DNA of 64,000 bases, from positions 5,691-69,690 of the forward strand of contig JBAVYM010000041.1 in the NCBI GenBank assembly GCA_049698775.1, written 5' to 3'. Below, piece by piece: positions 4,607-45,744 of the stretch. The notes under the pieces are model-generated. The model saw nothing but the letters and a program-made list of their open reading frames with translations. It had not been told where the DNA came from and did not search any database. The DNA is from Gammaproteobacteria bacterium. Lineage in GTDB: Bacteria > Pseudomonadota > Gammaproteobacteria > Natronospirales > REEB76. How positions within the stretch are numbered: the stretch's first letter is position 1; each line of letters starts with the position of its first letter. The position numbers and the translations under genes were made by a program.

Positions 4607-4837
4607 ATGTCCATCATGATCCAGATCCGAAACGTACCCGACAAGGTCCACCGCGCGCTCAAGGCGCGCTCCGCGCTGGCCGGAAAGAGTCTGAGCGACC
4701 TGGTCCTCGAGGAACTCATCGCTATGGTATCCGTGCCTTCCGAAGTGGAACTCAAGGCCCGGTTGGCCGAAGCCGAACCGTTCACGATGAAGAAATCCTC
4801 CGCCGGCATTGTGCGCCGCGAGCGCGACGCGGCATGA
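4607..4837 (+). CDS. Type II antitoxin (FitA/VapB-like ribbon-helix-helix)
   Basis: MSIMIQIRNVPDKVHRALKARSALAGKSLSDLVLEEL is the FitA-like RHH pattern. It has an ATGA overlap with the downstream PIN gene. Confidence 0.8.
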   Translation: MSIMIQIRNVPDKVHRALKARSALAGKSLSDLVLEELIAMVSVPSEVELKARLAEAEPFTMKKSSAGIVRRERDAA

Positions 4838-5232: not shown

Positions 5233-5312
5233 GCATTCAAGAAGGATGAGAGTGAGTACGAGTTGAGGACGATGTAAATCCTGGGCGTTGGTCAACTGAG
5301 TGGGGGTTCGAT

Positions 5313-6323: not shown

Positions 6324-6373
6324 CGCAGGGTGACGATCAAGCACGTATCACCGAGGCATCGAGGAGAAGGCAC

Positions 6374-6853: not shown

Positions 6854-6908
6854 TGCGTGTTCGCGGCGTCACGCAAGCCCTGATCACTCTCCGGCAAGGA
6901 AACTCGAC

Positions 6909-7952
6909 ATGAAATATATCGTAATGTTGGCTCTCGTTTTCGCATTCGCCGCGCCGATCGCCGCGACGCAGGCGGCCACGGGCGACCAGATCTACTCGCA
7001 TCCGGAGCGGCTGGTGAATGCCGGGCCGACCCAACTCAACTTTTATTGCATGGGCTCGGGTTCTCCGACAGTCGTCTTTGACGCCGGCTGGGAAGACTGG
7101 TCGCCGTCGTGGGTCTTGATTCAACCTGTGATTGCACGCCACACGCGGACCTGCACCTACGACCGTGCCGGCTACGGCTTCAGCGCAGCCGGACCGATGC
7201 CGCGCACCAGCGTCGAGATTGCCAAGGAACTCCACACGGCATTGCACAATGCCCGCATCCCGGGTCCGTATCTTGTGGTCGGGCATTCGTTCGGCGGTTA
7301 CAACACCCGCACGTTTGCTGACCTTTACATGCCCGAGGTGTACGGCGAAGTCTTCGTGGATATCGCGGACGGCGATGTTGCGACGAGGGAAGGGCGTGAA
7401 TTATTCGACCACAAAATCGCACTCCATGCGTTGACCCAGTGCCGCGATGCGCTCTCCGCGCACGAGCCACTGCCGCCGATACCGTTGACCGGTCATTCCT
7501 ACGTGCCCGCGCCGAACACGCCGTGCTCGCATCAGTTCTTCCGCGGCCTGCCGATGAAGGAGTGGTCTCCGCAACTCAATGCCGCCGTCCTGCATATCGC
7601 GGAGACGCGCGTGGCGTCCTACGACGCTGCCTTTTCCGAGATGCAGGAGATGCCGACCGACGCGGATTGGCTGGTTAAACACCGGCAGTCGTTCGGCGAT
7701 CGGCCGCTGGTCATTCTTACCGCTCAGAACCATTCCTACGACAATGCCAAGACCCCGCCCGCCCTGCACGCGAAACACTTGGCATTCGAACGTGCCTGGG
7801 CGCGAACACAGCGTCGTTTTCTCTCCCTCTCGACCAACGCCAAGCAAATCCTCGTGCCGGATAGCGGCCACTACATCCAGCTCGATCAACCGCAAGTCGT
7901 GATCAACGCGATTTTGGGAGAACTGCCAAAGCGCCGGAATACGACCCCATGA
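6909..7952 (+). CDS. Secreted alpha/beta-hydrolase
   Basis: It has a signal peptide ([22 protein letters not shown]) and the nucleophile elbow GHSFGG. Confidence 0.75.
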
Positions 7953-9160
7953 AGCCCCGCTGGCGCGCACCGATCTGGCTGATGGGCATGACGTGGATGC
8001 CGTTCGGGCTGCTGACCTGTCTGGACGCCCTAACCATCCCGCAGTTGTTGGCGGTACGGCATGTCCCCGAAGGCGCGATCGCGGCGCTGACCACGCTGGC
8101 GTATTCGCCGATCGTCTGGTGCTTCCTGGTGTGTCCCATACTTGACGTGCGCTTTACCCGGCGGTCCTACGCCGTGGCAGGCACGCTGATCGCGGCCGTG
8201 CTGACGCCGGTGGCGTTGCTGAATCTGGATCACCTGGCGCTGGTGATGGGTGTGTTGGTGGTTGCGACTCTAGCGAGTGCCCTGATGATCAACGCACTGG
8301 GCGGGTGGTTTTCGACCGTGATTCCGCACGAGGACGAGAGCCGCATGAGCGCCTGGATGTCGGTGGGCAATCTCGGGGCGTTCGGCCTGACCGCTTTCGT
8401 TGCAATCGAACTGATCAATCACTTGTCGCTGCCCGTCGCCGCGATCCTGCTGGGCGCGATGCAACTGCTGCCGTTGGCGATCTATCCGTTCATTCCGGTG
8501 ACCCGGCCCGACGCAAAGCTGGCGCGCGACAGCTTCGTGCAGTTCTTCCGTGAAATTGCCCGACTGTTCAAGCGCCGCGAAGTGCTGATTGCGCTGGCGA
8601 TGTTCCTGTTGCCATCGGCATCGTTCACGCTCAGCAACGTGCTGGGCGGGCTCGGTGATGACTTCCACGCTTCGATGCAGTGGGTCGGCACCATCGGAGC
8701 CGCCGCGAGCGTGGTGAACATCGCGGCCAGCTTGTTCCTGCCACGGCTGGCGAAACGTTTGCCGTTGCGGCCGCTGTATCTGACCATCGGCATCGTGGGC
8801 GGCCTGTTCACGTTGAGCTTGCTGTTGCTGCCGCACACGCCAACGGTTTTCGCCGTGGCGTTCCTGGGCGAAAGCTGGTTCCAGTCGCTGGCGATCACCT
8901 GTTCCATCGCCATCACCTTTGAAGTCATCGGGCGCAACAATCCGCTGGCGGCGACAACCTTCACCGTGCTGATTGCGGCAGCCGTATTGCCCATTGATTA
9001 CATGGTGGCCGTGGACGGCCACGGCTATGCATGGCACGGCGTGGCGGGAGCCTTCATCACCGATGCGGGACTGGGCATCGCCTCGTGCCTGCTATTGGCG
9101 CTGATGCTGTGGTGGATGCGGTCGAAGCTGCGGAGGCCGGCGTTGCCGGAATCGGTATAG
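7949..9160 (+). CDS. MFS transporter of the AmpG/PAT-like type
   Basis: It is a ~12-TM hydrophobic protein whose N-terminal region resembles AmpG-family permeases. It has an ATGA overlap with the hydrolase gene. Confidence 0.7.
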
Positions 9161-9315
9161 TGGCGTCGCGGGCACATCGTTGCACGCTTTCACATGCATC
9201 CGGGAAAGCGATCCAATCTCGGAATTGATCTGGAATCGAGGAGGAGGCAAATGAAAAACTTTTCCGGTTGTCGCGCGCTCGCGCAAACCCTGAATCGTTC
9301 GAGAGGAGAATAGCG

Positions 9316-9858
9316 ATGAAGAAATTGTTTGGTTTTGCTGTGTGTATTGTGATGTTTGCGGGTGGGCAGGTGCTTGCGGTTGATGGCCTGCCGCTTTCGC
9401 CGGAGCTTCAGAAACTGGATGTTTCCACGGGCCGCTGGGTGTATCACGGCGAAACGCTGAATACGCCCTTCGGCAAGGCCGGTAACTGGACCTGGAACGA
9501 GGATTGCCGCTGGTCCGAGAACCGGATTTTCATGACCTGCAGCTTCAGCAACGTCTGGTCCGGCAAAACCGTCCAGTCGCTGGTGGTGGACACCTACAAC
9601 GAGAAGGACAAGAGCTTCTGGCACTACGAATTGTTTGCAGGCGGCGGCAGCGGCGCTCAGCCTTTCATTTCCAAAATGACCATCAACGGCGATACCCGCG
9701 TCGAGTATGCCACCGGCATGGATCACGGCAAGAAGTACAAGACGCGCATTACCTACGTGTTTGATTCGCCCACGCACGTCAAGGTGAAGATTGAGATTTC
9801 CCGCTATGGTGCCCACTGGATAACGGTGGACCAGGGTGAGGGCATTAAGCAGTCCTGA
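9316..9858 (+). CDS. Secreted hypothetical protein
   Basis: The ATG at 9316 follows a GAGAGGAG RBS. The signal peptide is MKKLFGFAVCIVMFAGGQVLA. I did not recognise a family with confidence. Confidence 0.55.
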   Translation: MKKLFGFAVCIVMFAGGQVLAVDGLPLSPELQKLDVSTGRWVYHGETLNTPFGKAGNWTWNEDCRWSENRIFMTCSFSNVWSGKTVQSLVVDTYNEKDKSFWHYELFAGGGSGAQPFISKMTINGDTRVEYATGMDHGKKYKTRITYVFDSPTHVKVKIEISRYGAHWITVDQGEGIKQS

Positions 9859-9902
9859 CTTTTGGGAGGTCTGATTAAATTGTCCATATCCCAAGTTCGT
9901 CA

Positions 9903-9968
9903 TTCCGGCGAATGCCGGAATCCAGAAAAATCAATTTCTTACTGGATACCTCCCGGTGAAAGCCGGGA
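9903..9968. repeat. REP-like hairpin pair (TTCCGGC-gaat-GCCGGAA and TCCCGG-N6-CCGGGA)
   Basis: Two short perfect stems lie in the intergenic gap 9859-10149. The cattccggcgaatgccggaatccag motif is characteristic of intergenic REP elements. Confidence 0.5.
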
Positions 9969-10149
9969 TCACGCCGGTATGACGAAGTCAGAAGATCAGC
10001 GAACAAATCATGGCAATCCTGTAACGTCCAACAATACGCCATGAATATGAACGCCTCTCGCCCCGCTATGGCGGGGCATGGGGCATTTTTAGAAGTGGTG
10101 GAATATCCCAGGTTGAGGGTTTAGAATTCACCAATCGCTGGAGGATACT

Positions 10150-10383
10150 ATGGCGGCAAATCTCAAAGAAGAACTGCACCTGCTGGCAGACCGCCTGCCA
10201 GACGGAGCCACGTGGAAGGACATACTCTACGAAGCCTACGTGCGTCAGGAGATCGAAGCGGGTCTTGAGGAAGCACGGCGTGGCGAGTTCGCGACCGACG
10301 CCGAAGTAAAATCCGCTTTTGCCAAATGGGGTGTGCAGATTGAAACTGAAATGGACTCGCCAGGCGCTGCATCAGCTTCTTGA
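10150..10383 (+). CDS. Antitoxin partner of the ParE/RelE-family toxin
   Basis: 77 aa and acidic. The C-terminal ...EARRGEFATDAEVKSAFAKWG motif is common in such antitoxins. It overlaps the toxin gene. Confidence 0.6.
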   Translation: MAANLKEELHLLADRLPDGATWKDILYEAYVRQEIEAGLEEARRGEFATDAEVKSAFAKWGVQIETEMDSPGAASAS

Positions 10384-18714: not shown

Positions 18715-18765
18715 TCTGGGTCACGACCGGCGGGGCCGGGCCCGCGGTATTTGGCATCTTGCGCC

Positions 18766-18779
18766 TTGATTCATATCAA
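18766..18779. promoter_or_regulatory. FNR/Dnr-type box TTGATTCATATCAA upstream of norB
   Basis: This is a perfect TTGAT-N4-ATCAA palindrome. It is intergenic, with its centre ~74 nt upstream of the norB ATG at 18847. Confidence 0.75.
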
Positions 18780-18846
18780 GTTCCCGGATGGACGGATAAC
18801 CTATAGTCGCGTCGTTATCTACCTCACGGAATCTATCTCACGGAGC

Positions 18847-21177
18847 ATGGCCATGGGTACAGTTATGGATGGCGTTACCGAGGCTCCCCTTTCACCTTGG
18901 TGGGTGCGCAGCATCGTTGCGGTGATGGTGCTGGGCTTTGCGGTGCTCATTCTGATCACGGTGCTGGGCTATCGGAATGCGCCGCCGATCCCGGCAAAGG
19001 TAGTTGACGCACAGGGCGCAACCCTGTTCACCGGCGAAGATGTCGGCAGCGGTCAGGCGGTGTTCCTGAAATATGGGCTGATGGACAACGGCAGCATCTG
19101 GGGCCACGGCGCCTACCTCGGTCCTGATTTCTCCGCGCAAGCGCTACACCACATCGGCGAGGACACTGCCGAGGCGCTCGCACAACAGCAGTTCGGCAAA
19201 CCGCTCGCGCAACTGATCCCGATGCAGCAGGCGGCGGTGCGCTCACAAGTTGCGGTCGAGCTCAAAACCAATCGCTACGACCCTGCTACAGGTACATTGG
19301 CGCTGACACCCGCAGAAACTGCGGCGTGGCATCAACAGATCACTCACTGGACCGATTACTTCAAGAATCCGGTCGGCAATGGCGGTCTCAAGCCCAATCT
19401 GATAACCGATCCGACCGAGCTGCATCAATTCACCGCCTTCGTCACCTGGGCGGCCTGGGCCTCGGTGGCCAATCGGCCCGGCTACGACTACTCCTATACC
19501 AACAACTTCCCCTACGACCCGTTGGTCGGCAACACTCCGATATCCGGCGCTTTGCTATGGAGCGCGTTGAGCCTTTTGGTGCTGCTGGCCGGCATCGCCG
19601 CGGTGCTGTTAATGTTTGGAAAATTCGACTATCTCGGCTGGATTTCACGCGGAAACCGCCCCCACCCCAGCATCGTTCCGGGCCAGGCCAGTCCCGGACA
19701 GCGCGCACTGGTCAAGTACTTCGTGGTCGTGGCACTGCTGTTTCTGTTCCAGACCCTGGTCGGAGGCGGTGTCGCGCACTATCGCGCCGATCCGGGCAGT
19801 TTCTACGGTTTCCAGTTGGAAACCATCTTCCCCAGCAACCTGCTGCGTACCTGGCATTTGCAGAGCGCCATCATCTGGATTGCAACCGCCTATGTCGCCG
19901 CCGCGCTGTTCCTCGGCCGTGGGCTGCGCGACAACGAACCGCACGGATTCGCACTGTGGGTTAATCTGCTATTCGTCGCGTTCGTCGCGGTGATCGTCGG
20001 CAGTCTGCTCGGCGAGTGGCTTGGCATCACGCAGATGCTCGGACAATGGTGGTTCTGGCTCGGTAATCAGGGTTGGGAATACCTGGAGCTGGGGCGCATC
20101 TGGCAATATCTGTTGGTGATCGGACTGCTGGTGTGGTTCGCGTTGCTGTGGTGGGTGGCGCGGCCACGTGAGGTGGCCGATGCCAGCGCGCGCCCGATCG
20201 TGCGGATGTTCCTGTTGGCATCGCTCGCGATCCCGCTGTTCTACCTGCCGGCGCTGTTCTACGGCGCGAAGACCAACTACACGATTGTCGATACCTGGCG
20301 CTTCTGGATCATCCACCTGTGGGTCGAGGGCTTCTTCGAGTTCTTCGCCACCACCATCGTCGCGCTGGTGTTTTTCCAACTCGGGCTCGCCAGGCGCAAT
20401 ACCGCGCTGCGCGTGATCTATCTGGACGCGATCCTGTATTTTCTGGGCGGCCTGATCGGTACCGGTCACCACTGGTACTTCGAAGGCCATACCCAGTTCA
20501 ACATGGCGATGTCGGCGTTGTTCTCGGTGCTGGAAGTGGTGCCGCTGACCTTGCTGACGCTGGATGCCTGGGATTTTGTCAATACCACCCGTGGAACGGT
20601 AGATATTGACGGCCAGCCGCGCCGCGTACCACACAAGTGGACTTTCTACTTCCTTATGGCGGTGGGTTTCTGGAACTTTGTCGGGGCCGGCATGTTCGGC
20701 TTCCTGATCAATCTGCCGATCGTCAGTTACTACGAGGTCGGCACACAGTTGACGCCCAATCACGGCCACGCCGCGATGATGGGCGTGTTCGGCATGCTGG
20801 CAATCGCGCTGATGGTGTTCGTGCTGCGCCAAACCACCGATGAAGCGCGTTGGCCCGGTATCGAAAAGTACATCAAAGTAGCCTTCTGGGGCACCAATGT
20901 CGGCTTGGCAATGATGATCGTGATGAGCCTGTTTCCGAGCGGCGTGTTGCAGGTGTGGGATGTGGTACAGCATGGCTACTGGCATGCACGCAGCCTCGAA
21001 TTCACCGGCACCCATCGCGCGCGCGTGATCGAGTGGTTGCGCCTGCCGGGTGATCTGGTGTTCATCTTTCTCGGTGCACTGCCGCTGGTAATCGCTGCGA
21101 TCAAGACGTATTTCGGCATGCGGCGGGATCGTGCCGCGGAAGCTGCTCCGGCAGCCAGAATCCGGAGCGTGCCGTGA
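18847..21177 (+). CDS. norB: Quinol-dependent nitric oxide reductase (qNOR, single-subunit NorB/NorZ)
   Basis: At 776 aa it carries the N-terminal extension typical of qNOR (...FLKYGLMDNGSIWGHGAYLGPDFSA...) followed by a 12-TM heme-copper oxidase core with conserved His residues. The start at 18847 follows GGAG. Confidence 0.9.
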   Translation: MAMGTVMDGVTEAPLSPWWVRSIVAVMVLGFAVLILITVLGYRNAPPIPAKVVDAQGATLFTGEDVGSGQAVFLKYGLMDNGSIWGHGAYLGPDFSAQALHHIGEDTAEALAQQQFGKPLAQLIPMQQAAVRSQVAVELKTNRYDPATGTLALTPAETAAWHQQITHWTDYFKNPVGNGGLKPNLITDPTELHQFTAFVTWAAWASVANRPGYDYSYTNNFPYDPLVGNTPISGALLWSALSLLVLLAGIAAVLLMFGKFDYLGWISRGNRPHPSIVPGQASPGQRALVKYFVVVALLFLFQTLVGGGVAHYRADPGSFYGFQLETIFPSNLLRTWHLQSAIIWIATAYVAAALFLGRGLRDNEPHGFALWVNLLFVAFVAVIVGSLLGEWLGITQMLGQWWFWLGNQGWEYLELGRIWQYLLVIGLLVWFALLWWVARPREVADASARPIVRMFLLASLAIPLFYLPALFYGAKTNYTIVDTWRFWIIHLWVEGFFEFFATTIVALVFFQLGLARRNTALRVIYLDAILYFLGGLIGTGHHWYFEGHTQFNMAMSALFSVLEVVPLTLLTLDAWDFVNTTRGTVDIDGQPRRVPHKWTFYFLMAVGFWNFVGAGMFGFLINLPIVSYYEVGTQLTPNHGHAAMMGVFGMLAIALMVFVLRQTTDEARWPGIEKYIKVAFWGTNVGLAMMIVMSLFPSGVLQVWDVVQHGYWHARSLEFTGTHRARVIEWLRLPGDLVFIFLGALPLVIAAIKTYFGMRRDRAAEAAPAARIRSVP

Positions 21178-34653: not shown

Positions 34654-36528
34654 TTATTTTGTGTACTCGAGCCGCACGAACAGCGAGCGGCCGACAGTGT
34701 TGTAGCCGGAAGCGGTCTGGTAATGCGTATCGAACAGATTTTCAAGGCTGCTGCTGATGGCGAAGCCGTGGCCGAGCGCGCGGCGCGCGGTCAGGCCCGT
34801 GAGCACGTAGCCGGCATCGGTGACCGGCAGGCCGGTGTTGAAATCCAGATCGCTGCGCGGACCGGTGACGATGACATGCACGCCGAAGCTGGTAGCGTCA
34901 TCGCGCCAGTCGAGCGCGGTAGTGAGTGTGCGTTCGGCGCGGCGCAGTAGCAGCGTGCCGGTGTTGAGGTTTTCGGGTTTCTGGAAAATCACATCCGTGC
35001 GCCAAGACCAATCGCGCTGCGTAAATTGGTAACCGGCTTCCAGGCCGCGCACGCGGGCGCGGGCGATGTTTTCGTTCTGACCGTTCAGATCCGCAGGCGT
35101 GACCACGAACTGAATCAGATTGTCCAGCTTGTCGCGGAACGCACTGAGCGTGAGGCTCTGGTCATCGCCGATTTTCTGGCGCAGGCCCAGCTCGAGGTTT
35201 TGCGAGGTCTCCGGTTGCAGGTCTGGATTGCCGCCGAAGCCGAAGCGCTCGTTGGCGCTCGGCGCGCGGAAACCGGTGCCGGTTCCGGCCGTGAGGCGAG
35301 TGTCGGCGGTCAGATCGTAGCCGTAGTCGGCGTTCCAGGTGAGGTGATTTCCGAACGCCTGGTCATGGGTGTCGCGCGCCGCCAGCACCAGACGGTACGG
35401 GCCGGCGTGGATATCGTCCTCGGCATAGAGCGCGTTGATGTGGTCGGTCTGGTCGAAACCGGAACCGAACGACAACGCGGAAGCGTGCTGCGCTTCGGAA
35501 TACAGACCGGCGGTGAACAATTGGTACTCGCCCACGGCCACGTCGTTTTGCCAATCCACCGCGTTGCGCTGGGTGTGCACGAAATCGGGTATCTGCTGCG
35601 GATTAAGGGGGTCGGCTTGCAGTTGGTCAATTTCGTCGAGCATGTGACTGAGATTCAGGTTGCTGCGCCAGTCGGTGAGGAAATGGCCGGTGAAATCCAT
35701 GCTTGATGCCTGATTGCCAAAGTTTTCATCAAAAGGCGCAAGGGCGAATGGTGGATTCGGCGAGAAATCCGTGAACTGGGTGTTGCCGCTGCTCTGCCAG
35801 TGCTTGAAATCCATGTCCAGACCGCCGAGGGTGGTGCGCCCGTAGGCATTCCAGGTGCGATCGGTATTGCCGTTGTCGGTGGTGGTGCCAGCGACCGCCG
35901 GGAAGCCGTCTGTATGGTAATCGTCGGCGGACACGCCGAAGGCGCTGTCACCTTGGCCGTAATCGAAATGGCCGCCGTTGTCGTATGTGCCGTAGCGACC
36001 GGCGCCGGCGTGGGCGCCGTAGTGCGTGCCCTCACTCGCCTGCTTGGTGATGATGTTGATGACGCCGCCGATGGCGTCGGAGCCGTAGAGTGCGGCGCGC
36101 GGGCCTTTGACGATTTCGATGCGCTCGATGTCGTTCAAGCGCAGATTGGCGAGCGGCGCGCCACTGCCATCGGCGGGATTGATTTTCACACCGTTGAGCA
36201 TCACCAGCGTCTGGTTGCTGTTGGTGCCGCGCAGGAACAGCGAAGTCGGCTGGCCGGGGCCGCCATTCTGAGCAATGTCGAATCCCGCATATTGCTGCAA
36301 TACCTGCGCGATGCTTTGCGCGCCCGAGAGCTGTATCTGCTGAGCGGTAATCACGATGACCGGCGCGACCTCCTGGTCCGCGATGAGCGGTGTGCGCGTG
36401 GCAGTGACGGTGATGGGTGAACCGAGGCTGACGGCGCCGTTGTCATCCTGTGCGGAAACGGAAAACGCGGCAAACAGCGCGAGCGCGCCGCCCGCGAGAG
36501 TGAAATAACGCATGTGAATCTCCCGCAC
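34654..36528 (-). CDS. btuB: TonB-dependent vitamin B12 outer-membrane transporter
   Basis: It has a signal peptide, a TonB-box-like ITVTATRTP, a plug domain (...GGVINIITK...) and a beta-barrel. It lies directly downstream of a cobalamin riboswitch. Confidence 0.85.
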   Translation of the reverse strand: MREIHMRYFTLAGGALALFAAFSVSAQDDNGAVSLGSPITVTATRTPLIADQEVAPVIVITAQQIQLSGAQSIAQVLQQYAGFDIAQNGGPGQPTSLFLRGTNSNQTLVMLNGVKINPADGSGAPLANLRLNDIERIEIVKGPRAALYGSDAIGGVINIITKQASEGTHYGAHAGAGRYGTYDNGGHFDYGQGDSAFGVSADDYHTDGFPAVAGTTTDNGNTDRTWNAYGRTTLGGLDMDFKHWQSSGNTQFTDFSPNPPFALAPFDENFGNQASSMDFTGHFLTDWRSNLNLSHMLDEIDQLQADPLNPQQIPDFVHTQRNAVDWQNDVAVGEYQLFTAGLYSEAQHASALSFGSGFDQTDHINALYAEDDIHAGPYRLVLAARDTHDQAFGNHLTWNADYGYDLTADTRLTAGTGTGFRAPSANERFGFGGNPDLQPETSQNLELGLRQKIGDDQSLTLSAFRDKLDNLIQFVVTPADLNGQNENIARARVRGLEAGYQFTQRDWSWRTDVIFQKPENLNTGTLLLRRAERTLTTALDWRDDATSFGVHVIVTGPRSDLDFNTGLPVTDAGYVLTGLTARRALGHGFAISSSLENLFDTHYQTASGYNTVGRSLFVRLEYTK

Positions 36529-36589: not shown

Positions 36590-36810
36590 CCCGCGCATTG
36601 CCCGCCGCAACGCTGATGCCGTTGCCTCGGGGCCGGTCTCCGGGCTCGCGAGCGGGTTTTCCCGGTCTGTCGCCTTCCCGCGCTTGTGCGCAGTGGCTTC
36701 GTGACAGACTTGTGCTCGCCTACCGTTGCGGGGGCAGCTCCGGCATTGTCGTGTGACGCACCGGCTTCCCGAGTGTCATCCGCGAAGATGACGCCTCAAG
36801 GCGGCGGGCA
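36590..36810 (-). promoter_or_regulatory. Cobalamin (AdoCbl) riboswitch in the btuB leader
   Basis: The minus strand contains, in canonical order, GGGAAGCCGGTG (36770-36759), AATGCCGGAGCTGCCCCCGCAACGGTA (36747-36721), GCCACTG (36697-36691) and the B12 box AGCCCGGAGACCGGCC (36646-36631). The boundaries are approximate. Confidence 0.85.
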
Positions 36811-36932
36811 ATCTAAAGCGTCGCCATGCTGCTGTCAAGCAAGTCGATGCTGTGTAAGCAGGATTCAGTTCCACGCAGCGACCATGCGCATTGCCAGCCG
36901 TTCCGATAAGCATTTTTGCTATCTGACTTGCG

Positions 36933-36986: not shown

Positions 36987-37565
36987 TCAGGCCGGCTGGA
37001 AGGCGCTGCCGTTCTTGATATTGTCGAAGGCCTTTTGCGCCAGGGCCGCCGCCTGCTTTTCGCCACTGGCGAAGTCCTTGGGGTTGTTTACCTGCACCAT
37101 CATTTTGTAGCCGTCCTGGATGATGTGCAGTTGCACCGAAGTGGAGGTCGGGTTAAGGGTGTTATCCACGAAGAATGCACCCTCGCCGAAACCAGTGGTC
37201 ACATGCACCTTGGTCGGAACGATGTTGTTCTTGAACAGGGCCTTTTGCGTGGCGGCATCTTCGGCCAAGTCAGCGGCAGGATTCTTGGAATTGGAACCGG
37301 ATATTTGCAGTAACACGGCGGTATCGTTGTTGTCGTTGATGTATTCGCAGATATGCACCGGCGAACCGGTGCCGGAGAGCTTCAGTCCGATGAGCTTGCC
37401 GCCCAGTATCTGGCCGGCGGCGGTGTCGGGAAGGGCCAGGCAGGCCATGAGCACTTTCTTGGCCGCGGGTCCGGGGCCCTGGGAGCAACCGGCGATACCG
37501 CCCAAGAGCAATGCAGTTGCTGCACCCATGCCAGTCAGTTTTGCAAAATGATTCAGGTTGAGCAT
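36987..37565 (-). CDS. Lipoprotein of unknown function, last gene of the btuCD unit
   Basis: The ATG at 37565 gives MLNLNHFAKLTGMGAATALLLGGIAGCSQG, which contains a lipobox. It is 192 aa, does not resemble BtuF, and looks slightly lower in GC by eye than its neighbours. Confidence 0.6.
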   Translation of the reverse strand: MLNLNHFAKLTGMGAATALLLGGIAGCSQGPGPAAKKVLMACLALPDTAAGQILGGKLIGLKLSGTGSPVHICEYINDNNDTAVLLQISGSNSKNPAADLAEDAATQKALFKNNIVPTKVHVTTGFGEGAFFVDNTLNPTSTSVQLHIIQDGYKMMVQVNNPKDFASGEKQAAALAQKAFDNIKNGSAFQPA

Positions 37566-37676
37566 TTTTATGCCTCGTGACGGTGATTGAGGATGACGCC
37601 GGTTGAAATGGCAGTGCGCGCTAAGCTTTGGCAATGAGTAAAGGATACCGCAACACCCGCCGTCAGTCATGTACCT

Positions 37677-38450
37677 TCAGCCGGGAAGGTAAACCGTGCC
37701 ACCGGGCCAGCTTACCGGTATCACCGGTGTGCGATACAGACGGCTCAAGTTGGTGGCGGTGAGGGTTTCCGAAATCGGTCCATGCAGGACTTCGCCGTCG
37801 CCGAACAGCATCAGCATCTGGCCACAGAAACGCGCCGCCAGATTCACATCGTGCAGGCTCATGACGATGGCGCGCCCCTGATCGCGGGCCAGTGCGCTGA
37901 AATGCGAGAGCAATGTCAGTTGGTGGTGCAGATCCAGTTGATGCGCGGGTTCATCCAGCAACAGGACCTTGGGATCCTGGGTCAGGATGGTGGCAATGGC
38001 GAGACGGCGGCGTTCGCCGCCGGAAAGCTGGGTTTGAGAACGCTGTTCGAGACCGTCGAGCCCCACCAGTCTGAGTGCACGGCGCGCGATGTTCACATCC
38101 GCGTGGGACTCCCAGCGCCAGAAATCAATATGCGGATGCCGCCCGATGAGTGCGGTTTCCAGCACCGTGGCCGGCAGGCTATCCTCCTGTTGCTGCATGA
38201 GCAGGCCGAGGCATTGCGCGATGCGCCGGCGCGTCAGAGTGTGCAGGACGGCGCCATCCAGAAGGATTTCGCCGTGGTCAGACGCGCGCAATCCGGCCAG
38301 CGTGTGCAGCAGCGTGGTTTTGCCCACGCCGTTTGCACCCAGCACGCCGAGGCAAGCGCCAGCGTGCAGGGCCAAATCAAAATTGCGGCATACGATTTTG
38401 CCGGCGATGTTCACCGTGAGCGCACGCGCTTCCAGCAATGGCGCGTTCAC
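37677..38450 (-). CDS. btuD: ABC transporter ATP-binding protein (BtuD/FecE type)
   Basis: Walker A GANGVGKTT, signature LSGGERRR and Walker B LLLDEP are present. It has a 4-nt overlap with the permease gene. Confidence 0.8.
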   Translation of the reverse strand: MNAPLLEARALTVNIAGKIVCRNFDLALHAGACLGVLGANGVGKTTLLHTLAGLRASDHGEILLDGAVLHTLTRRRIAQCLGLLMQQQEDSLPATVLETALIGRHPHIDFWRWESHADVNIARRALRLVGLDGLEQRSQTQLSGGERRRLAIATILTQDPKVLLLDEPAHQLDLHHQLTLLSHFSALARDQGRAIVMSLHDVNLAARFCGQMLMLFGDGEVLHGPISETLTATNLSRLYRTPVIPVSWPGGTVYLPG

Positions 38451-39433
38451 AGCGGACCCCGTGCGCGATTCAGAAGATACAGGAATACCGGCACGCCGAT
38501 GCCGGCGGTGACCACGCCGACCGGCAATTGCTCGGGCGCTACCACGGTACGCGCCAGGGTGTCGGCAAGCATCAGCAGGCTGCCGCCCAAAAGCACCGCG
38601 CCCGGCAGCAAGCTGCGGTGGTCGCTGCCGGAAATCAGCCGCAGCATGTGCGGGATCACCAAGCCGACGAAACCGATGGCACCGGCTTCGGTCACTGCCA
38701 CCGCGGTGAACAACGACGCGGCGATGTAGATGGCAATGCTGAACGGACGCACCGCCACGCCGAGTGCTTCCGCCAGGGTTTCACCGCGCGACAGCACGTT
38801 CAGATGCCGCGCGAAGGGCATGCAGATGCAAAGGCCGGCGATGAGAACGATGAGCGCCGGCCAGCCGCTGCTGCGATAGGACAAGTCGCCCATGAGCCAG
38901 AACAACATGCTGCGCAAGCTGGCGTTGTCGGATAGCACCAGCAGCAAGCTGATGGCCGCGCCCCAACCGAAGGCCACCACGATGCCGGTGAGCAGCAGGC
39001 GCGTGGGCGTCCAGCCGCCGCGACCGTGGGCCAGCACGAACACGATGAGCATGGAGATGAGCGCGCCCAGAAATGCGCTGCCGCTGATCCAATAGCCGGC
39101 AAGCCCGAACAGCAACGACAACAGCGCACCGACTGCTGCGCCACCCGAGACGCCGAGAATATAAGGATCCGCGAGCGGATTGCGCAGCAGCACCTGCATG
39201 AGTGCGCCGGCGAGTGCCAGGAGACCGCCGGTGGCAAACGCGGTGATGGCGCGCGGCAGGCGCAACTCGAGTACCAGCGTGCGCGTGAGCGGATCGCCGC
39301 CGCCGCTCAGGACATTTACCACCGAGCATAATGGCAGGTGCACACTGCCCACCGCCAACGCCATGCACAACGCAATGAGCGCGAGCACCACCAGGGCGCT
39401 GAGCAGGGGCAGCGGATGCAGGCGCCGTTGCAT
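38447..39433 (-). CDS. btuC: FecCD-family ABC permease (BtuC type)
   Basis: It has ~9-10 TM segments and the motifs ...RLPRAITAFATGGLLALAGALMQVLLRNPLADPYILGVSGGA... characteristic of FecCD/BtuC. Confidence 0.85.
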   Translation of the reverse strand: MQRRLHPLPLLSALVVLALIALCMALAVGSVHLPLCSVVNVLSGGGDPLTRTLVLELRLPRAITAFATGGLLALAGALMQVLLRNPLADPYILGVSGGAAVGALLSLLFGLAGYWISGSAFLGALISMLIVFVLAHGRGGWTPTRLLLTGIVVAFGWGAAISLLLVLSDNASLRSMLFWLMGDLSYRSSGWPALIVLIAGLCICMPFARHLNVLSRGETLAEALGVAVRPFSIAIYIAASLFTAVAVTEAGAIGFVGLVIPHMLRLISGSDHRSLLPGAVLLGGSLLMLADTLARTVVAPEQLPVGVVTAGIGVPVFLYLLNRARGPL

Positions 39434-40733: not shown

Positions 40734-40892
40734 CTAGCAGGTTGTTGAAAAACGCCATCCATGGCCTTTTTCAACTCGAAAACCGAAAATGCGATTTCCG
40801 GTTTTCTCCATTTTTCAATCACTTGGCGTGATTGAAAAATGGCGGCACGTCCGTGTACCGCGCTAGCAGGCTGTTTTTCAACAGCCTGCTAG
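40734..40892. repeat. ~160-bp MITE-like element with 20-bp terminal inverted repeats (19/20) and three internal TTGAAAAA-type hairpins
   Basis: The left end is CTAGCAGGTTGTTGAAAAAC (40734-40753). The right end is GTTTTTCAACAGCCTGCTAG (40873-40892). There are perfect 13-bp stems at 40810-40840 and 40863-40892. The right end overlaps the stop codon of the peroxidase gene. Confidence 0.6.
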
Positions 40893-42667
40893 TTACTGTA
40901 GTCCTCATTGAGCGATGCCAGAAACGCGGCCATATCCGCAAGGTCCGCATCGTTGAGTGCAATGTTCTGCATGCGCGGGTCGGCGTTGCGCAGTTGGCCG
41001 GCGCGTGCCAGGGCAGAGGCCTGTTGGTAGAACTTGAGCACGTCGGTGAGCGTGTCGAACTCGCCGTTGTGCATGTAGGGATCGGACTGGCCGAGATCCC
41101 GCAGGGTACGGGTCTTGAACACCGCGACCGCGAGGTTCAGCAATTCATCATCGCTCGCCGCGCAGTCCGCGTATTGCCCGCTTTTGATGGAACATAGGAA
41201 CTCGCGCAGGCTCGCCTGGCGGCTGGGAAAATACGGATTGGCAAAAATGTTCCACACGCCCAAGTCGGTCTTTTGCGGATTGGCGAGCGTGGCGGCGGAA
41301 CGGAATACGCTCTCGTCATCAGGATTGGTTGGCAGGTAGGCGTCGGGATCGGCGTTGCGCTCTGCGAGCGTGGGGATGGACAGTTGCATGAACGCGCCTG
41401 CGCCATGAACCGAATCATATTCGAATTGTGATACACCGGTGTTATGCATGAGATGATCGGTGAAATCCGGCGGAGTGTGGCAGGCGGCGCAGTTGCCAAT
41501 GCCGCCGGCAGTGATTTCCGCGGATGTGAGGGTTGCACCGGCCGGGCGGTTTAGAAAGATCATCAGGCCGTGCAACTCCTGCGTGCCAAATACAAACGGC
41601 TGGTCGTGCTGGAACTTGAGCACGCCGTCGTTCACAAATTGCGGATTGTGCAGTCCGCTCAGTGCCAGCAGCAGGGCGGCGGCGTATTGCTGTGGGGTCT
41701 GGGCCGCTGCCGGCGCACGCGGCAAATTATTGAGAATCAGGAATTGGTCAAAAGGCGAGCCGTTGAACTTATTGTTGCTGTCACGGCTGAACGCCAGGCT
41801 GTTGACGTAGGAAGCGATCAGATTGGCGACGTCCTGGGCGATTTGTTCACCGCTGGCCGTGGCCACATTCAGGCAGTACTGCTGCGGCAGCCGGTATGCG
41901 GCCGGAATCTGCGGGTCGCTGCAATCGAACAGGGTAGCGTAGGGTAGAGAGCCGCTGAACTGCTGTGCCAGCGTATCTGTGCCATTGTCCAGGCGGATCA
42001 CACGGGCAATTTGTTGCACCGCCTGGCCCTGTTCCGTTGGCAACCAGCCAAAATCGCGTCCAGTGAGCGTGTCGTACACCAGCGTGTCCATGTCACCGAA
42101 CTCGCAGTCCCAATGCAGGCATTGACCCGCATCGCCGGTGTTGAAGTCGTCCACCATGGGCGCGGGTTTGCGGGCGGTGAATGCACCCTGTGTGCTGGCG
42201 TCTTCCGGCCTCAGCGGATGGGGCGCCCGGCCGGCAAAGTTGGTGTAGGCGCGCATGCCGCCGCCCGGCACGTCCATTTCCTGTTGCACCAAATGACATT
42301 GCAGGCAGTTCATGGATTGGCCGGCCATGGGACCCGGCAGGGATATGGCGGGGTTCGTGGTGGGCACGTTGGCGACGGTCGGCTCGCCCACATTCACGCC
42401 ATTGATCGCGCCGCCCGAGTGCGTGACGAAATATTGACCGAAGCGCGGATCCTTGAACAGGCGCTCGCCGAGAAGTTGGTCGGGCGGGTTGAGCGCCTCA
42501 CCGACGCTGCATTCACTGGGGCTGACGCATCCGGGGCCGGGCGGCACGTTGGTCTGGCCGCCGTTGGTAAGTTTGCAGCCGCTGAGCAGCGCACCCAGGC
42601 TGGCGAGCAGGCCGGCTAGCATCAGTCCACGCACGCCACGGCGCGGAAAAGCGTCAAAAGAATTCAT
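40889..42667 (-). CDS. Di-heme cytochrome c peroxidase/MauG-family lipoprotein
   Basis: It has a lipobox (LLSGC) and two CXXCH motifs (CLQCH, CAACH), the second in the ...GNCAACHTPPDFTD context typical of the CCP family. Its start overlaps the upstream gene by 14 nt. Confidence 0.75.
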   Translation of the reverse strand: MNSFDAFPRRGVRGLMLAGLLASLGALLSGCKLTNGGQTNVPPGPGCVSPSECSVGEALNPPDQLLGERLFKDPRFGQYFVTHSGGAINGVNVGEPTVANVPTTNPAISLPGPMAGQSMNCLQCHLVQQEMDVPGGGMRAYTNFAGRAPHPLRPEDASTQGAFTARKPAPMVDDFNTGDAGQCLHWDCEFGDMDTLVYDTLTGRDFGWLPTEQGQAVQQIARVIRLDNGTDTLAQQFSGSLPYATLFDCSDPQIPAAYRLPQQYCLNVATASGEQIAQDVANLIASYVNSLAFSRDSNNKFNGSPFDQFLILNNLPRAPAAAQTPQQYAAALLLALSGLHNPQFVNDGVLKFQHDQPFVFGTQELHGLMIFLNRPAGATLTSAEITAGGIGNCAACHTPPDFTDHLMHNTGVSQFEYDSVHGAGAFMQLSIPTLAERNADPDAYLPTNPDDESVFRSAATLANPQKTDLGVWNIFANPYFPSRQASLREFLCSIKSGQYADCAASDDELLNLAVAVFKTRTLRDLGQSDPYMHNGEFDTLTDVLKFYQQASALARAGQLRNADPRMQNIALNDADLADMAAFLASLNEDYSN

Positions 42668-43451
42668 ATTCCAGCCTCAACATGAAAGTTTTATCGGGAG
42701 CATGGGCGTTCATGCCGAATACCACGCCCGCGCTGTATTCGAGTTCGTTCCCTGAATCGGAGGCGTATTCCCCGTACACCACCGGTCCCGACTGGTACTG
42801 GTTGGCGTTGGGATGCAAGTAAACTTCCACGCCCGGCGCGAACAGCGGTGTGACGCGGTAGCTCAGGCTGTAGGCGCTGCGAAACACGTAACCGCGCGCC
42901 GCGCCGGTACCGATCTCGCGCTCCCAGATCAGGTTGAGACGTTGATCGAAACGGCCGCTGTGTTTCTCGAACAACGGCCCGAATTCCAGCTCATTCGCCT
43001 GGCTAAGATGGGTCTTGAATTCGTACGACAGTAAAAACCCGGGGTCCGCCCAGTATTCGCCGGGAGGCGCGAGCTGGAAGGTGTTTTCGAACTCGTAAGC
43101 CACCAGATTGCTGGGCTGGCGCGGAAGCTGGGTGTATTCACCGAGATACAATTCCGTTTTCCACCAACTAGTGAAGCTGTGGGCCACGGACAGCACCTGG
43201 CCGTTCAAATCATCCAGCACCAAGCTGCTGTCGCGATAAGCGGCGGCGCGCAGCTCGATCTCGCTTTGCCCCTGTATTACGTAAGGGGAGTAGACCGTGT
43301 AATCGTTGATGTACTCGTCCAGCTCATTGTCCGCCCGCGCAGCGGGTACGACGACAAACAGTGCCAGTATGATTGCCAATGACAGCGTGAAACGATGCCA
43401 GAAGGATCTTTTGGGTGGCAGTTGGCGAAGGGTAGGGTTCATTTTTTGCAT
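42654..43451 (-). CDS. Outer-membrane beta-barrel protein (unknown family)
   Basis: It has a signal peptide ending ...PAARA, an alternating amphipathic beta-strand pattern, and the C-terminal sequence LRLEYEFF with a terminal Phe. Confidence 0.6.
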   Translation of the reverse strand: MQKMNPTLRQLPPKRSFWHRFTLSLAIILALFVVVPAARADNELDEYINDYTVYSPYVIQGQSEIELRAAAYRDSSLVLDDLNGQVLSVAHSFTSWWKTELYLGEYTQLPRQPSNLVAYEFENTFQLAPPGEYWADPGFLLSYEFKTHLSQANELEFGPLFEKHSGRFDQRLNLIWEREIGTGAARGYVFRSAYSLSYRVTPLFAPGVEVYLHPNANQYQSGPVVYGEYASDSGNELEYSAGVVFGMNAHAPDKTFMLRLEYEFF

Positions 43452-43536
43452 GGCGCTCGTGTTGCAAAGCGTTGCTCAGAAGAATGCGTATTCCGGATGC
43501 GGCACGAAAGTCCGGATGATGTGCAGATGGTCGGCC

Positions 43537-44397
43537 TCAGGTACCAGTCGGCTGGCTGTGAGCTTGCGCCGCGGCCGGTGACGGGCGCGAACGCGCCGTG
43601 CGCCTCCCAACCGTTCGCATTAGCGTGAAGATAGTTACCAGCGTGACCACATAGAACAGCAACTCGATGCCGGAAGGCCGCGCGATGTAGCCCACCAGAA
43701 TATGCAGCAACTGGCCGAGAATGCTCTGCTGGTTCAGGATATGAGAGGTGTTCCAGAGGTTGCTGCCCAGCGCCGGCAACAGGCCAGCCTGGTTGAGGAA
43801 GCCGGCAGCTTGGGCGGCCAGCCCCGCCGTCAGCAGCAGAATCAGCCAGCCAGTGACCGTGAAGAAATAGCGGATCGGAATGAACAATAAGCTGCGGTAA
43901 AGCAGCGCGCCCACCGCGATGCCGGCCGCAAGACCTGCGAAGCCGCCGACCGTCATGCCGAATTCCTGGCCGCCGCTGGCGGCGATGGCCCATAGGAACA
44001 GCACTACTTCCGAACCTTCGCGCATCACTGCGGTGAAACAGATCACCAGCAGTGCCGCCAGGGTTTTATTGCCGGCCTGCACCGCCGCGCCGATCTGCTT
44101 GATTTCTCCCGCGAGCTTGCGGCCGTGACCGCTCATCCAGATGTTGTGCCAGGCGAGCATTACGACCGCAATCAGCAGAATTACTGCATCCAGCAGAGCT
44201 TGGCCGGTGCCGGAAAATGCTTCTGCGATGGCGCCCGCGAACAGCGCCACCAGCCCCGCGCCGAGCGCGCCGAGTAGGATGCCACCCAGCACCCACCGGC
44301 CGCGACGGGCGACGCCGCGGCTCGCGCCCAGCACGATCGCGATCACCAGCGCAGCTTCGAGCACCTCGCGGAAAACAATGACGGCCGTGGCGAGCAT
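43537..44397 (-). CDS. FTR1-family high-affinity iron permease
   Basis: Two REXXE-type motifs (FREVLEA and MREGSEV) are carried in a 7-TM protein. Confidence 0.85.
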   Translation of the reverse strand: MLATAVIVFREVLEAALVIAIVLGASRGVARRGRWVLGGILLGALGAGLVALFAGAIAEAFSGTGQALLDAVILLIAVVMLAWHNIWMSGHGRKLAGEIKQIGAAVQAGNKTLAALLVICFTAVMREGSEVVLFLWAIAASGGQEFGMTVGGFAGLAAGIAVGALLYRSLLFIPIRYFFTVTGWLILLLTAGLAAQAAGFLNQAGLLPALGSNLWNTSHILNQQSILGQLLHILVGYIARPSGIELLFYVVTLVTIFTLMRTVGRRTARSRPSPAAAQAHSQPTGT

Positions 44398-44417
44398 GAG
44401 GAATTCCTGCGAACCGG

Positions 44418-44780
44418 TTATTTGTTGCCGCCGGTTTTGGCGGCGTCTGGCGTGGATACCACCACCCAACCTTGCGCCGCGTGGTTGAAGTCATTGAAGA
44501 AGTTGTAGCGGCCCGGAGCCAGGGGGCCGAGGAACACGACCACCGAGCTATGGCCCGGCACCACCACTTCGCGCGACAGGTCATAGCTCTCGAACTCCGC
44601 CGGCTGACTGTCCTGGTTCACCACCAGCAGCTTGATCTTGGTGTTGGCGGGCAACGGCAACTCTTGGGTGGTAAATACCCGGTTTTTGATCACCAGTTGG
44701 GCGGTGGGCGGTTCGGCATACGCCATGGAGCCAATTGCCAAGGCGGCGATCAAGGCCAGGGAAGTGAGGCGTGGAGACAT
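44418..44780 (-). CDS. Periplasmic cupredoxin-like domain protein (FtrB-like partner of FTR1)
   Basis: It has a signal peptide (MSPRLTSLALIAALAIGSMAYA), and ...KLLVVNQDSQPAEFESYDLSREVVVPGHSSVVVFLGPLAPGRYNFFNDF matches cupredoxin_1-like FTR1 partners. Confidence 0.7.
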   Translation of the reverse strand: MSPRLTSLALIAALAIGSMAYAEPPTAQLVIKNRVFTTQELPLPANTKIKLLVVNQDSQPAEFESYDLSREVVVPGHSSVVVFLGPLAPGRYNFFNDFNHAAQGWVVVSTPDAAKTGGNK

Positions 44781-44816
44781 GCTGTTTCCTTGGATTGAGC
44801 AGCAGTTCGAGTGTTC

Positions 44817-44835
44817 GTAAATGCGAGTAATTCTC
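44817..44835. promoter_or_regulatory. Candidate Fur box in the divergent ftr / bfd promoter region
   Basis: GTAAATGCGAGTAATTCTC matches 12/19 positions of GATAATGATAATCATTATC in my alignment. It is an AT-rich, partly palindromic stretch (AAATGCGAGTAATTCTCATTT) in GC-rich DNA between two iron-related operons. Confidence 0.4.
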
Positions 44836-44925
44836 ATTTGTGAGCAAAGTATAGCTCTTGCTTTTGGTATTGGCAATCGTTCGCATTTGCGTTTATGATT
44901 GCGGATACTGAATCAGGAAATACCC

Positions 44926-45150
44926 ATGTTCGTTTGCGTCTGTCATGCTGTGACCGAGAGTCAGATCCGCCGGGCGGTGGATGAGGGCGCCGCTGGCCTG
45001 GCCGACCTTGGCGCGCGGCTGGGAGTCGCCATCCATTGTGGCTGCTGCGCTGAACAGGCCGTTTCAGCGCTGCAGAAACGCTTGCTTGAAATCGCCTCCT
45101 CGCAACCTCTCACCGGTTCCACCGACATTCGCCCCGCACTTCGCTGCTAG
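44926..45150 (+). CDS. bfd: Bacterioferritin-associated ferredoxin
   Basis: MFVCVCHAVTESQIRRAV...CGCCAE gives the four Cys of the Bfd [2Fe-2S] motif. It lies immediately upstream of bfr. Confidence 0.85.
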   Translation: MFVCVCHAVTESQIRRAVDEGAAGLADLGARLGVAIHCGCCAEQAVSALQKRLLEIASSQPLTGSTDIRPALRC

Positions 45151-45279: not shown

Positions 45280-45744
45280 ATGCAAGGCGATACCAGGGTC
45301 ATCCAGTTCCTGAACAAGGCGCTCAAGAACGAGCTCACCGCCATCAACCAGTATTTCCTGCACGCGCGCATGTACAAGAACTGGGGCCTGAAGGATCTCG
45401 ACGAGCACGAATACAAGGAGTCGGTGAGCGAGATGAAGCACGCCGATCGGCTCATCGAGCGCACCCTGTTCCTGGAAGGGCTGCCGAATCTACAGGAATT
45501 GGGCAAGCTCTACATCGGCGAACACGTCAAGGAGATCATCGAGTGCGACTTGAAGCTGGAAATGGAAGCAGCGCCTTTGTTGCGCGAAGCCATCGCCTAC
45601 TGCGAATCGAAAAGCGATTACATTTCACGCGAGCTGTTCGAGGACATCCTGGAAAGCGAAGAGGACCACATTGATTGGCTGGAAACCCAGTTGGAACTCA
45701 TTCAGCGCGTCGGTATCGAGAACTACACCCAGAAGAAAATCTGA
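45280..45744 (+). CDS. bfr: Bacterioferritin
   Basis: [37 protein letters not shown]...[15 protein letters not shown] covers the ferroxidase ligands and the heme Met context. Confidence 0.95.

Follow-up and report, generated by a model that had tools for sequence, protein, structure and literature searches.

A four-gene operon on the minus strand of contig JBAVYM010000041.1 (GenBank assembly GCA_049698775.1) is best read, at a probability of roughly 55%, as a Fur-repressed, oxidase-dependent Fe(II) uptake operon with a widespread three-part core and a clade-specific fourth part. The operon lies in a stretch of 64,000 nucleotides (positions 5,691 to 69,690 of the contig; hereafter the window) from the metagenome-assembled genome (MAG) of an uncultured gammaproteobacterium. 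The conserved unit is a triad of an FtrB/Cup-II cupredoxin, an FTR1 permease and a 12-stranded acidic outer membrane barrel, and this triad is widespread. The fourth gene encodes a di-heme lipoprotein of the cytochrome c peroxidase (CCP)/MauG superfamily, which is inherited together with a monophyletic subtype of the barrel. Overall, the iron-uptake reading and the role of the barrel are well supported, and the di-heme protein, by analogy with known systems, is a plausible periplasmic Fe(II) oxidant or electron sink.

The cupredoxin, FTR1 and barrel core

An earlier reading of the window from its letters alone (the sequence-only reading) had described four minus-strand open reading frames (ORFs) separated by 20 nt, 85 nt and a 14-nt overlap, the last between the barrel and di-heme genes. 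These ORFs, their spacings and their motifs were reproduced by ORF calling and a motif script, and a sequence scan found neither a terminator-like nor an internal promoter-like site in the gaps between the four genes. The FTR1 ORF equals the public model P0241 in length, and the barrel start in the NCBI model lies 9 nt later, which gives a protein of 262 amino acids (aa). The sequence-only reading was also right that P19, EfeO and FtrD are missing, as Pfam and NCBIfam searches indicate that the cupredoxin, FTR1, barrel and di-heme proteins are the only products of the operon. Neither P19, M75/EfeO, DyP nor FtrD was found in the operon or among the best 25 of the 70 families matched by the 56 other ORFs of the window.

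The cupredoxin matches Cupredoxin_1 of Pfam (3e-23) and the crystal structure of an FtrB-type protein (PDB 8vuk, 1e-16). It contains the motifs EFESYDLSRE (ExE-x6-E) and DFNH (DxxH), and the mature protein is free of Cys, so that no Cys is available for a type-1 copper site. Cup-II proteins are defined by the iron-site residues of ExE-x6-E and the copper-site residues of DxxH (PMC11966278), and the structural match and both motifs bear out the identification of an FtrB-like cupredoxin. The permease belongs to the FTR1 family (PF03239, residues 1-259, 1e-32, 113.5 bits against a cut-off of 25.3) and has seven hydrophobic segments. Its two REXXE motifs, also recognized earlier, are REVLE (residue 10) and REGSE (residue 126). 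Against the EfeU equivalog NF041756 it scores 144.4 bits, which is below the cut-off of 255.

A barrel profile retrieved 80 metagenome loci with barrels of 43-60% identity. Among the 50 loci with at least 1400 bp upstream of the barrel, 40 have cupredoxin-FTR1 there, eight have a cupredoxin alone and two have neither. A di-heme gene lies 3' of the barrel in one of the 63 loci having downstream sequence. The order cupredoxin-FTR1-barrel is also present in the cultivated Sulfuriferula plumbiphila, and the triad is common in Beta- and Gammaproteobacteria of soils, mine drainage and other iron-rich acidic habitats. In the MAGs that are syntenic with the window, whose FTR1 proteins are 79-83% identical to that of the window, the genes run erpA, bactofilin, DUF6776, hemJ, cupredoxin, FTR1, barrel, GNAT, rppH, fecCD and an ABC gene. 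Both the di-heme gene and the bacterioferritin pair bfd-bfr, which in the window is divergent from the operon, are missing from these MAGs and are therefore clade-specific insertions at the same triad. In the closest syntenic relatives (L164-L168, ~5300-5650), it is the hemJ-cupredoxin interval that lacks bfd-bfr. At L164 the barrel position (6943-7974) holds two short ORFs of 160 and 129 aa with 39% identity to the window barrel, which may represent a frameshifted or decaying copy. Elsewhere, a cupredoxin gene is followed by a barrel gene without FTR1 between them (L086 5571-6654, L087, L088-L090, L110, L127, L149, L152 and L158), and this pair can therefore occur without an adjacent permease.

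The assignment of the barrel to the FTR1 system holds, being backed by the 40 of 50 loci with cupredoxin-FTR1 upstream and, in addition, by gene fusions. An exhaustive search with the barrel profile yielded 1012 cluster representatives, the best 150 of which were checked for fusions. At least 16 of these 150 are FTR1::barrel fusions in a single ORF of 513-528 aa with the barrel at the C-terminus (P0414, P0422, P0441, P0460, P0481, P0490 and at least 10 more; locus L169 2265-3833). A full N-terminal FTR1 domain was found by Pfam in all four of the full-length fusions tested. In all six sequences that were read across the junction, a basic stretch is followed by a hydrophobic core, an AxA-type site and then the VYSPYV start of the barrel, features that identify the junction as a predicted internal signal peptide. 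A fusion of a permease to a barrel would make no sense unless both work together and signal peptidase frees the barrel. The junction sequences thus suggest that the barrel moiety is cut free by signal peptidase, i.e., that the fusion is a polyprotein. One fusion member has a weak Pfam match to KdgM, and the fusion gene of P0441 is preceded by a Cupredoxin_1 gene and a gene for a CsoR/RcnR-type repressor.

The barrel protein itself has a signal peptide ending in ARA and the C-terminus LEYEFF, and the mature protein contains 27 acidic and 14 basic residues. Pfam and NCBIfam gave no match for the window barrel, and none at E values up to 1 for 18 barrel members. The AlphaFold2 (AF2) model has 12 strands, with a mean predicted local distance difference test score (pLDDT) of 62 and values below 50 in the N-terminal strands. 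Foldseek matched this model to FapF, Tsx, PcoB, NanC and a KdgM-type porin. These matches were taken only to place the barrel in the class of 12-stranded outer membrane channels, as a predicted pore, and not as a sign of homology to FapF or PcoB. The UniRef label 'BcsS' on the Sulfuriferula homolog could not be reproduced and was not used. The predicted strands contain four E-x-E dyads (E64/E66, E120/E122, E236/E238 and E261/E263), whose residues are invariant across 18 diverse barrels except for E261, which is conserved in 17 of the 18. E100, E132, D136, E156 and E228 are likewise invariant in the 18 sequences. Because strand residues two apart point to the same side, the dyads would fit a pore whose lumen is acidic.

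The iron signal is strong over many loci and weak in the window alone. Fur-like boxes were called at 13 or more matches to the 19 positions of the E. coli Fur consensus, GATAATGATAATCATTATC. Such a box lies 5' of 52 of the 64 cupredoxin genes, with 16-17 matching positions in 14 of them, whereas the corresponding figures are 15/320 for random segments and 3/140 for the remaining intergenic regions of these loci. A fur gene (PF01475, 2e-40) is divergent from the triad in 11 metagenome loci (L142, 3025-6613; L091, L092, L098, L099, L102, L105, L108, L111, L114 and L115). Just past fur, L142 encodes a canonical 344-aa di-heme CCP (PF03150, 9e-49), the only canonical CCP found near the triads. In the window, the bfd-cupredoxin intergenic region is 145 bp long and has one sigma-70-like promoter in each direction. 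Its alignment with the orthologous loci L001, L003 and L004 contains exactly two conserved blocks, which are the Fur-like boxes A and B, and these overlap -35 and +1 positions. Box B begins 9 nt downstream of the operon -10 and is kept in all three loci, with a perfect 10-1-10 palindrome at its position in L004, while box A of L003 and L004 reads AAATGAGAATCATTGAC and matches the consensus at 14/19. The Fur-like site proposed earlier, at 44817-44835, overlaps the conserved 21-bp palindrome of box B, and its score of 12/19 was reproduced. This score is weak on its own, however, because ~11% of control intergenic regions reach it. Putative control by Fur is nevertheless backed in silico, across many loci, by the excess over the intergenic controls, the adjoining fur genes and the conserved boxes. 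The divergent bfd-bfr pair was likewise confirmed by its Fer2_BFD and TIGR00754 matches, and since it shares the Fur-box region with the operon, iron import would be turned on at the same time as the release of iron from storage.

The di-heme lipoprotein and its link to the barrel

The di-heme protein has the lipobox LSGC (Cys31) and the heme motifs CLQCH at residue 121 and CAACH at residue 393, which are ~270 residues apart. Across 114 sequences, C121/C124/H125 and C393/C396/H397 are invariant or nearly so. Within Pfam, the protein matches only PF00034 (24.3 bits) and does not reach the threshold of PF03150, a family for which some of its homologs have a precomputed match and the homolog of the Binatia MAG L021 scores 27.2 bits. 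Similarity to the MbnH, MauG and His-Xaa-Ser MauG-like models is restricted to the last ~75 residues and falls far below the NCBIfam cut-offs (TIGR03791, 39 bits vs 444; TIGR04039, 47.5 vs 363). The AF2 model, built from the 114 sequences, has a pLDDT of 89.3 and a predicted TM-score (pTM) of 0.87. The best Foldseek matches of this model are MauG and BthA, and MbnH and canonical bacterial CCPs (bCCPs) are matched as well, with E values of 1e-6 to 1e-4 and target-normalized TM-scores of ~0.6-0.65. Membership of the CCP/MauG superfamily, which the motifs alone had suggested, is therefore upheld by the fold.

In a sequence alignment, the PYMHNG...FY segment matches MauG residue by residue, and Tyr547, invariant in 114/114 sequences of the family, falls on Tyr294 of MauG. 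In MauG and BthA a Tyr ligates the six-coordinate heme, and both enzymes form bis-Fe(IV) (PMC6405878). Because Tyr547 aligns with this axial Tyr and is conserved, the di-heme protein is assigned to the MauG-type branch, with a putative His/Tyr-ligated heme. It is not an ortholog of MauG, MbnH or BthA, because both its scores and its gene context fail. No mau or mbn genes were found near the di-heme gene, either among the ORFs of the window or among the best 25 of the 70 matched families. In the Acidobacteriaceae/Acetobacteraceae MAGs L064, L065, L072 and L076 (~7470-7880), a gene for a small c-type cytochrome stands directly 5' of the di-heme homolog, and this cytochrome may be its electron donor in those lineages.

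A scan with a di-heme profile over one genome per GTDB species found 547 relatives, and the best 80 loci were analyzed. Among these 80, the full four-gene layout is confined to three closely related MAGs, L001, L003 and L004 (69-88% identity), which share it and its flanking synteny with the window. By the refuting criterion that the sequence-only reading had set, co-conservation of the four genes as a set thus fails. Barrel-di-heme pairs occur in other neighborhoods, with neither FTR1 nor a cupredoxin adjacent, at L005, L006, L007, L058/L103 and L083. The di-heme proteins of L005, L006, L007 and L058 are 53-61% identical to that of the window, and the pairs of L005, L006, L007 and L083 stand right behind a -35/-10 promoter with a Fur box of 13-15/19 just past the -10, e.g., GTAAATGCGAATCATTATC.

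In a neighbor-joining tree, the di-heme-linked barrels form one clade, within which the window clade is nested, and they share an extra acidic N-terminal segment, DNELDEYINDY, that is also present in the window barrel. The window barrel is 74% identical to the barrel of L083 and 69% identical to that of L006. Its identity to the barrels found in the syntenic relatives is just 47-48%, even though the FTR1 proteins of these relatives are ~80% identical to that of the window. The simplest reading is that a barrel-di-heme unit replaced the resident barrel behind cupredoxin-FTR1. The di-heme protein is not tied directly to FTR1, as had been supposed. Its link runs to the barrel instead, and the pairs occur without FTR1.

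Homologs of the di-heme protein at 42-47% identity, from Nitrospira, Nevskia, Polyangia, Binatia and others, have neither a window-type barrel nor cupredoxin-FTR1. Their genes belong to a different, conserved array that comprises a Porin_O_P-like porin, a small lipoprotein, an FMN_bind protein, a 172-aa protein with four transmembrane segments (4-TM), an HD protein in Nitrospira and the di-heme protein. ApbE is encoded close by, divergently in Nitrospira, Nevskia and others, and the Nitrospira and Binatia arrays are followed by a bacterioferritin gene. Such arrays were seen at L023 (3631-10356), L024, L025, L030, L049, L061, L074, L077, L056 and others. In 16 of the 23 distant loci, the porin gene is preceded by a Fur-like box with 13 or more of 19 matches, e.g., GATATTAATAATCGTTCTC in Nitrospira and GATAACAAGAATCCTTATC in Nevskia, and the array of Nitrospira, Nevskia and others appears to be a further type of envelope redox system under iron control.

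With the window FTR1 and the Binatia cytochrome c::FTR1 as tblastn queries, FTR1 was found near distant di-heme homologs only at L021. In this Binatia MAG (639-10364), a Fur homolog is encoded upstream, and cytochrome c (x2)::FTR1, FMN_bind, ApbE, the 4-TM protein, a 625-aa porin, the di-heme protein and bacterioferritin then follow on one strand. At this locus, FTR1, a porin and the di-heme family have come together independently. The combination of a Fur box, a porin and the di-heme family recurs with differing inner-membrane partners.

Proposed mechanism and alternative explanations

In the proposed mechanism, the acidic 12-stranded outer membrane pore with its Glu-x-Glu dyads would admit Fe2+ to the periplasm. 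The FtrB-type cupredoxin would bind Fe2+ at its Glu triad and oxidize it at the Asp/His copper site, as is expected from the biochemistry of FtrB. FTR1, with its two REXXE motifs, would then move Fe3+ over the inner membrane, as is expected for the family. In the window clade, the pore subtype is co-inherited and translationally coupled with a lipoprotein of the MauG/BthA branch. At the pore, this protein would most likely act as an oxidant driven by peroxide or as an electron sink, and it would oxidize Fe2+ itself or re-oxidize the cupredoxin. Such a role would parallel the ones suggested for EfeB (EfeUOB) and FtrD (FtrABCD). The first three of these steps draw on knowledge of the families and on the synteny, fusion and Fur evidence, and the fourth is what we infer for the di-heme protein.

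Several points weigh against this reading. Barrel-di-heme pairs exist without an adjoining cupredoxin or FTR1, and the coupling of the di-heme protein to FTR1 is therefore indirect. Nearly all triads, those of the nearest syntenic relatives included, lack the di-heme gene, which must therefore be accessory and non-essential for the function of the triad. The MauG-type His/Tyr di-heme enzymes are known as protein modifiers and not as ferroxidases (PMC6405878), and an enzyme with two hemes is costly to make during iron starvation. In addition, the confidence of the barrel model is moderate and its fold matches are generic for 12-stranded barrels, each Fur-like box of the window reaches only 12/19 to the E. 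coli consensus, and numerous counted loci are kin, so that the counts overstate independence.

An alternative that we regard as unlikely is that the di-heme protein has no action on iron and is a maturase in the style of MauG or MbnH, whose bis-Fe(IV) state would oxidize Trp or Tyr residues of the barrel or cupredoxin to make or tune a metal site. Its nearest solved relatives are indeed MbnH, BthA and MauG, with Tyr547 at the position of the MauG ligand, and its gene is co-inherited with a barrel subtype whose acidic N-terminal segment is rich in Tyr. A bis-Fe(IV) state is formed by both BthA and MauG, and an adjacent outer membrane protein is the suspected target of BthA (PMC6405878). However, barrels without a di-heme neighbor conserve the invariant Trp and Tyr residues to the same degree, and only the C-terminal ~75 residues show sequence likeness to MauG and MbnH, with scores far below the cut-offs. 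Moreover, the distant di-heme homologs are paired with an unrelated Porin_O_P-type porin, which argues against a single specific protein substrate.

It is also improbable that the di-heme protein takes no part in transport and is a protective peroxidase that removes H2O2 at the site of Fe2+ entry into the periplasm and so prevents Fenton chemistry. The CCP-superfamily fold would suit this function, as would the dispensability of the protein for the triad in most genomes, the canonical CCP beside fur in the triad locus L142 and the bacterioferritin that adjoins the Nitrospira homolog. Detoxifying bCCPs have His/Met ligation. The putative His/Tyr ligation and the spacing of the heme motifs in the window protein are unlike those of these enzymes (PMC6405878), and its overlapping, co-inherited pairing with one pore subtype exceeds what co-regulation needs.

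There is little likelihood that the porin and di-heme protein form an electron conduit for reducing or mobilizing extracellular or periplasmic Fe(III). The distant homologs are clustered with FMN_bind, ApbE and a small membrane protein, a set typical of extracytoplasmic flavin-based reductases such as those of extracellular electron transfer in Listeria. The window clade, however, lacks the FMN_bind, ApbE and 4-TM genes and encodes instead a permease that depends on an oxidase and a cupredoxin of putative ferroxidase type. A 12-stranded barrel is also too narrow for a cytochrome, and MtrAB-type barrels are much larger. Least probable of all is that the genes are neighbors by recent insertion, with the di-heme protein unrelated to FTR1, or that the system moves Cu, Pb or Mn: the insertion of the di-heme gene and bfd-bfr relative to the syntenic relatives, the score of FTR1 below the EfeU equivalog cut-off and the inclusion of lead transporters in the FTR1 family are outweighed by the Fur boxes and fur genes beside the triad over many loci, the Fur boxes 5' of barrel-di-heme pairs in other genomic surroundings, the gene overlap without internal promoter or terminator, and the presence of the two REXXE motifs and of the Glu triad that binds iron in FtrB.

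Beyond the uptake operon proposed here, a broader and tentative possibility is that a Fur-regulated porin and a MauG-like di-heme lipoprotein (His/Tyr-ligated and potentially bis-Fe(IV)-forming) constitute an unrecognized cross-phylum module of iron acquisition. Such a module might bring peroxide-driven oxidizing power to the outer membrane for varied importers (cupredoxin-FTR1, cytochrome c::FTR1 or FMN_bind/ApbE sets), and the Glu-rich barrel might then be the first dedicated outer membrane channel for Fe2+, sometimes made as one polyprotein with FTR1. To our knowledge, no pore dedicated to Fe2+ has been linked to FTR1 before. Fe2+ is generally thought to pass general porins such as OmpC (PMC7315122), and a dedicated, co-inherited and sometimes fused pore is now a candidate for this step. 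The oxidant of Fe2+ and the fate of its electrons, which are unsettled for FtrABCD and EfeUOB, become testable in bacterial FTR1 systems with defined genes, as does the role of the large orphan branches of MauG-like di-heme enzymes.

Genomic setting and comparison with known systems

The features of the operon and its divergent neighbors are listed in Table 1. The flanking FecCD, ABC and TonB-receptor genes were considered as part of an iron island and ruled out, as the TonB-dependent receptor is preceded by a cobalamin riboswitch (RF00174, 94.5 bits, 36614-36813, minus strand). Neighboring genes encode a lipoprotein, an ABC ATPase and a FecCD permease. Because of the riboswitch, these genes and the receptor (34654-36528, 36987-37670 and 37677-39433, all on the minus strand) are most likely a B12 uptake set (btuB/btuCD-like) outside the iron system. 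The window also encodes an 808-aa quinol-type nitric oxide reductase with a NorB cytochrome c-like domain and COX1 (18751-21177, plus strand), two PIN-domain ORFs and one gamma-glutamyltranspeptidase.

Table 1. Coordinates of the operon, the divergent bfd-bfr pair and their regulatory elements in the window.
Feature	Position	Strand	Description
Di-heme gene	40889-42667	-	592-aa lipoprotein, CCP/MauG superfamily; ORF call
Barrel gene	42654-43451	-	265 aa; ORF call
FTR1/OFeT permease gene	43537-44397	-	286 aa; ORF call and Pfam
Cupredoxin gene	44418-44780	-	120 aa, periplasmic, FtrB-type (Cup-II); start taken as the ATG behind an AAGGAAA ribosome-binding site
bfd, bacterioferritin-associated [2Fe-2S] ferredoxin	44926-45150	+	Fer2_BFD match
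bfr, bacterioferritin	45280-45744	+	TIGR00754, 2.5e-75
Terminator-like hairpin and T-run ending the operon	40842-40861	-	28 nt past the di-heme stop codon
Operon promoter, sigma-70-like	44848-44876	-	TTGCCA-17-TATACT; -35/-10 conserved in orthologs
bfd promoter, sigma-70-like	44870-44899	+	TTGGCA-18-TATGAT; promoter scan
Fur-like box B	44819-44839		AAATGCGAGTAATTCTCATTT; imperfect palindrome, 16/21 positions self-complementary
Fur-like box A	44869-44890		ATTGGCAATCGTTCGCATTTGC; overlaps both divergent -35 hexamers

The barrel and di-heme components carry the label 'hypothetical protein' in the public records examined, and the source MAG labels both window proteins in this way. No description of the barrel, the FTR1::barrel fusions or this di-heme family was found in the full-text literature searched, in which subscription journals are thinly covered. 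In size, strand number, C-terminal aromatic residue and acidic interior, the barrel is similar to KdgM/NanC, Tsx, PcoB and metal-regulated porins such as MnoP. In contrast to KdgM/NanC, Tsx and PcoB, it belongs to no sequence family of Pfam or NCBIfam. The fusions recall the FbcH-type polyproteins, the cytochrome b/c1 precursor of Bradyrhizobium being cleaved at an internal signal peptide. The predicted internal signal peptide and AxA site of the FTR1::barrel fusions would similarly allow release by signal peptidase, whereas the FTR1 and barrel genes of the window are separate.

The di-heme protein shares with MauG, MbnH (which works with MbnP) and BthA two CXXCH motifs, a common fold, the PYMHxG...Y segment with the axial Tyr and a specific partner protein, and MbnH acts in the context of metal (copper) uptake. 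In contrast, the window protein is a lipoprotein of 592 aa, as against ~350-480 aa in these enzymes, with ~270 residues between its heme motifs.

The cupredoxin-EfeU pairs of Leptospirillum were proposed as a two-gene module of a cupredoxin and an Ftr1-like protein for Fe(II) uptake by acidophiles (Osorio et al. 2008, PMC2631029). These pairs have no described barrel or di-heme partner and are linked to a kelch-domain gene. EfeUOB of E. coli and Bacillus, and EfeUOB/M of Pseudomonas syringae, resemble the operon in combining an FTR1-type permease, a cupredoxin module and a periplasmic heme peroxidase (PMC9174327, PMC3577903), and EfeB would be the functional analog of the di-heme protein. The window operon differs in that it has no M75 domain, its peroxidase is a c-type di-heme protein of the MauG type and not a DyP, and a barrel gene is added.

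Among the known systems, FtrABCD of Bordetella, Brucella and Burkholderia and the five-component FtrAPBCD of Rubrivivax likewise have an FtrC-like permease straight after an FtrB-like Cup-II protein, with the same Glu triad and Asp/His pair, and oxidase-dependent Fe(II) uptake has been proposed for them (PMC11966278). However, the window operon contains neither P19 (FtrA) nor the polyferredoxin FtrD, and it has a dedicated barrel, which is absent from FtrABCD, and, within its clade, the di-heme lipoprotein. Overall, cupredoxin-Ftr1 pairs, FtrABCD with FtrB, EfeUOB and BthA were known already, and what appears to be new, as judged from the literature searched, is the barrel, its fusions and the di-heme family within OFeT/FTR1 uptake.

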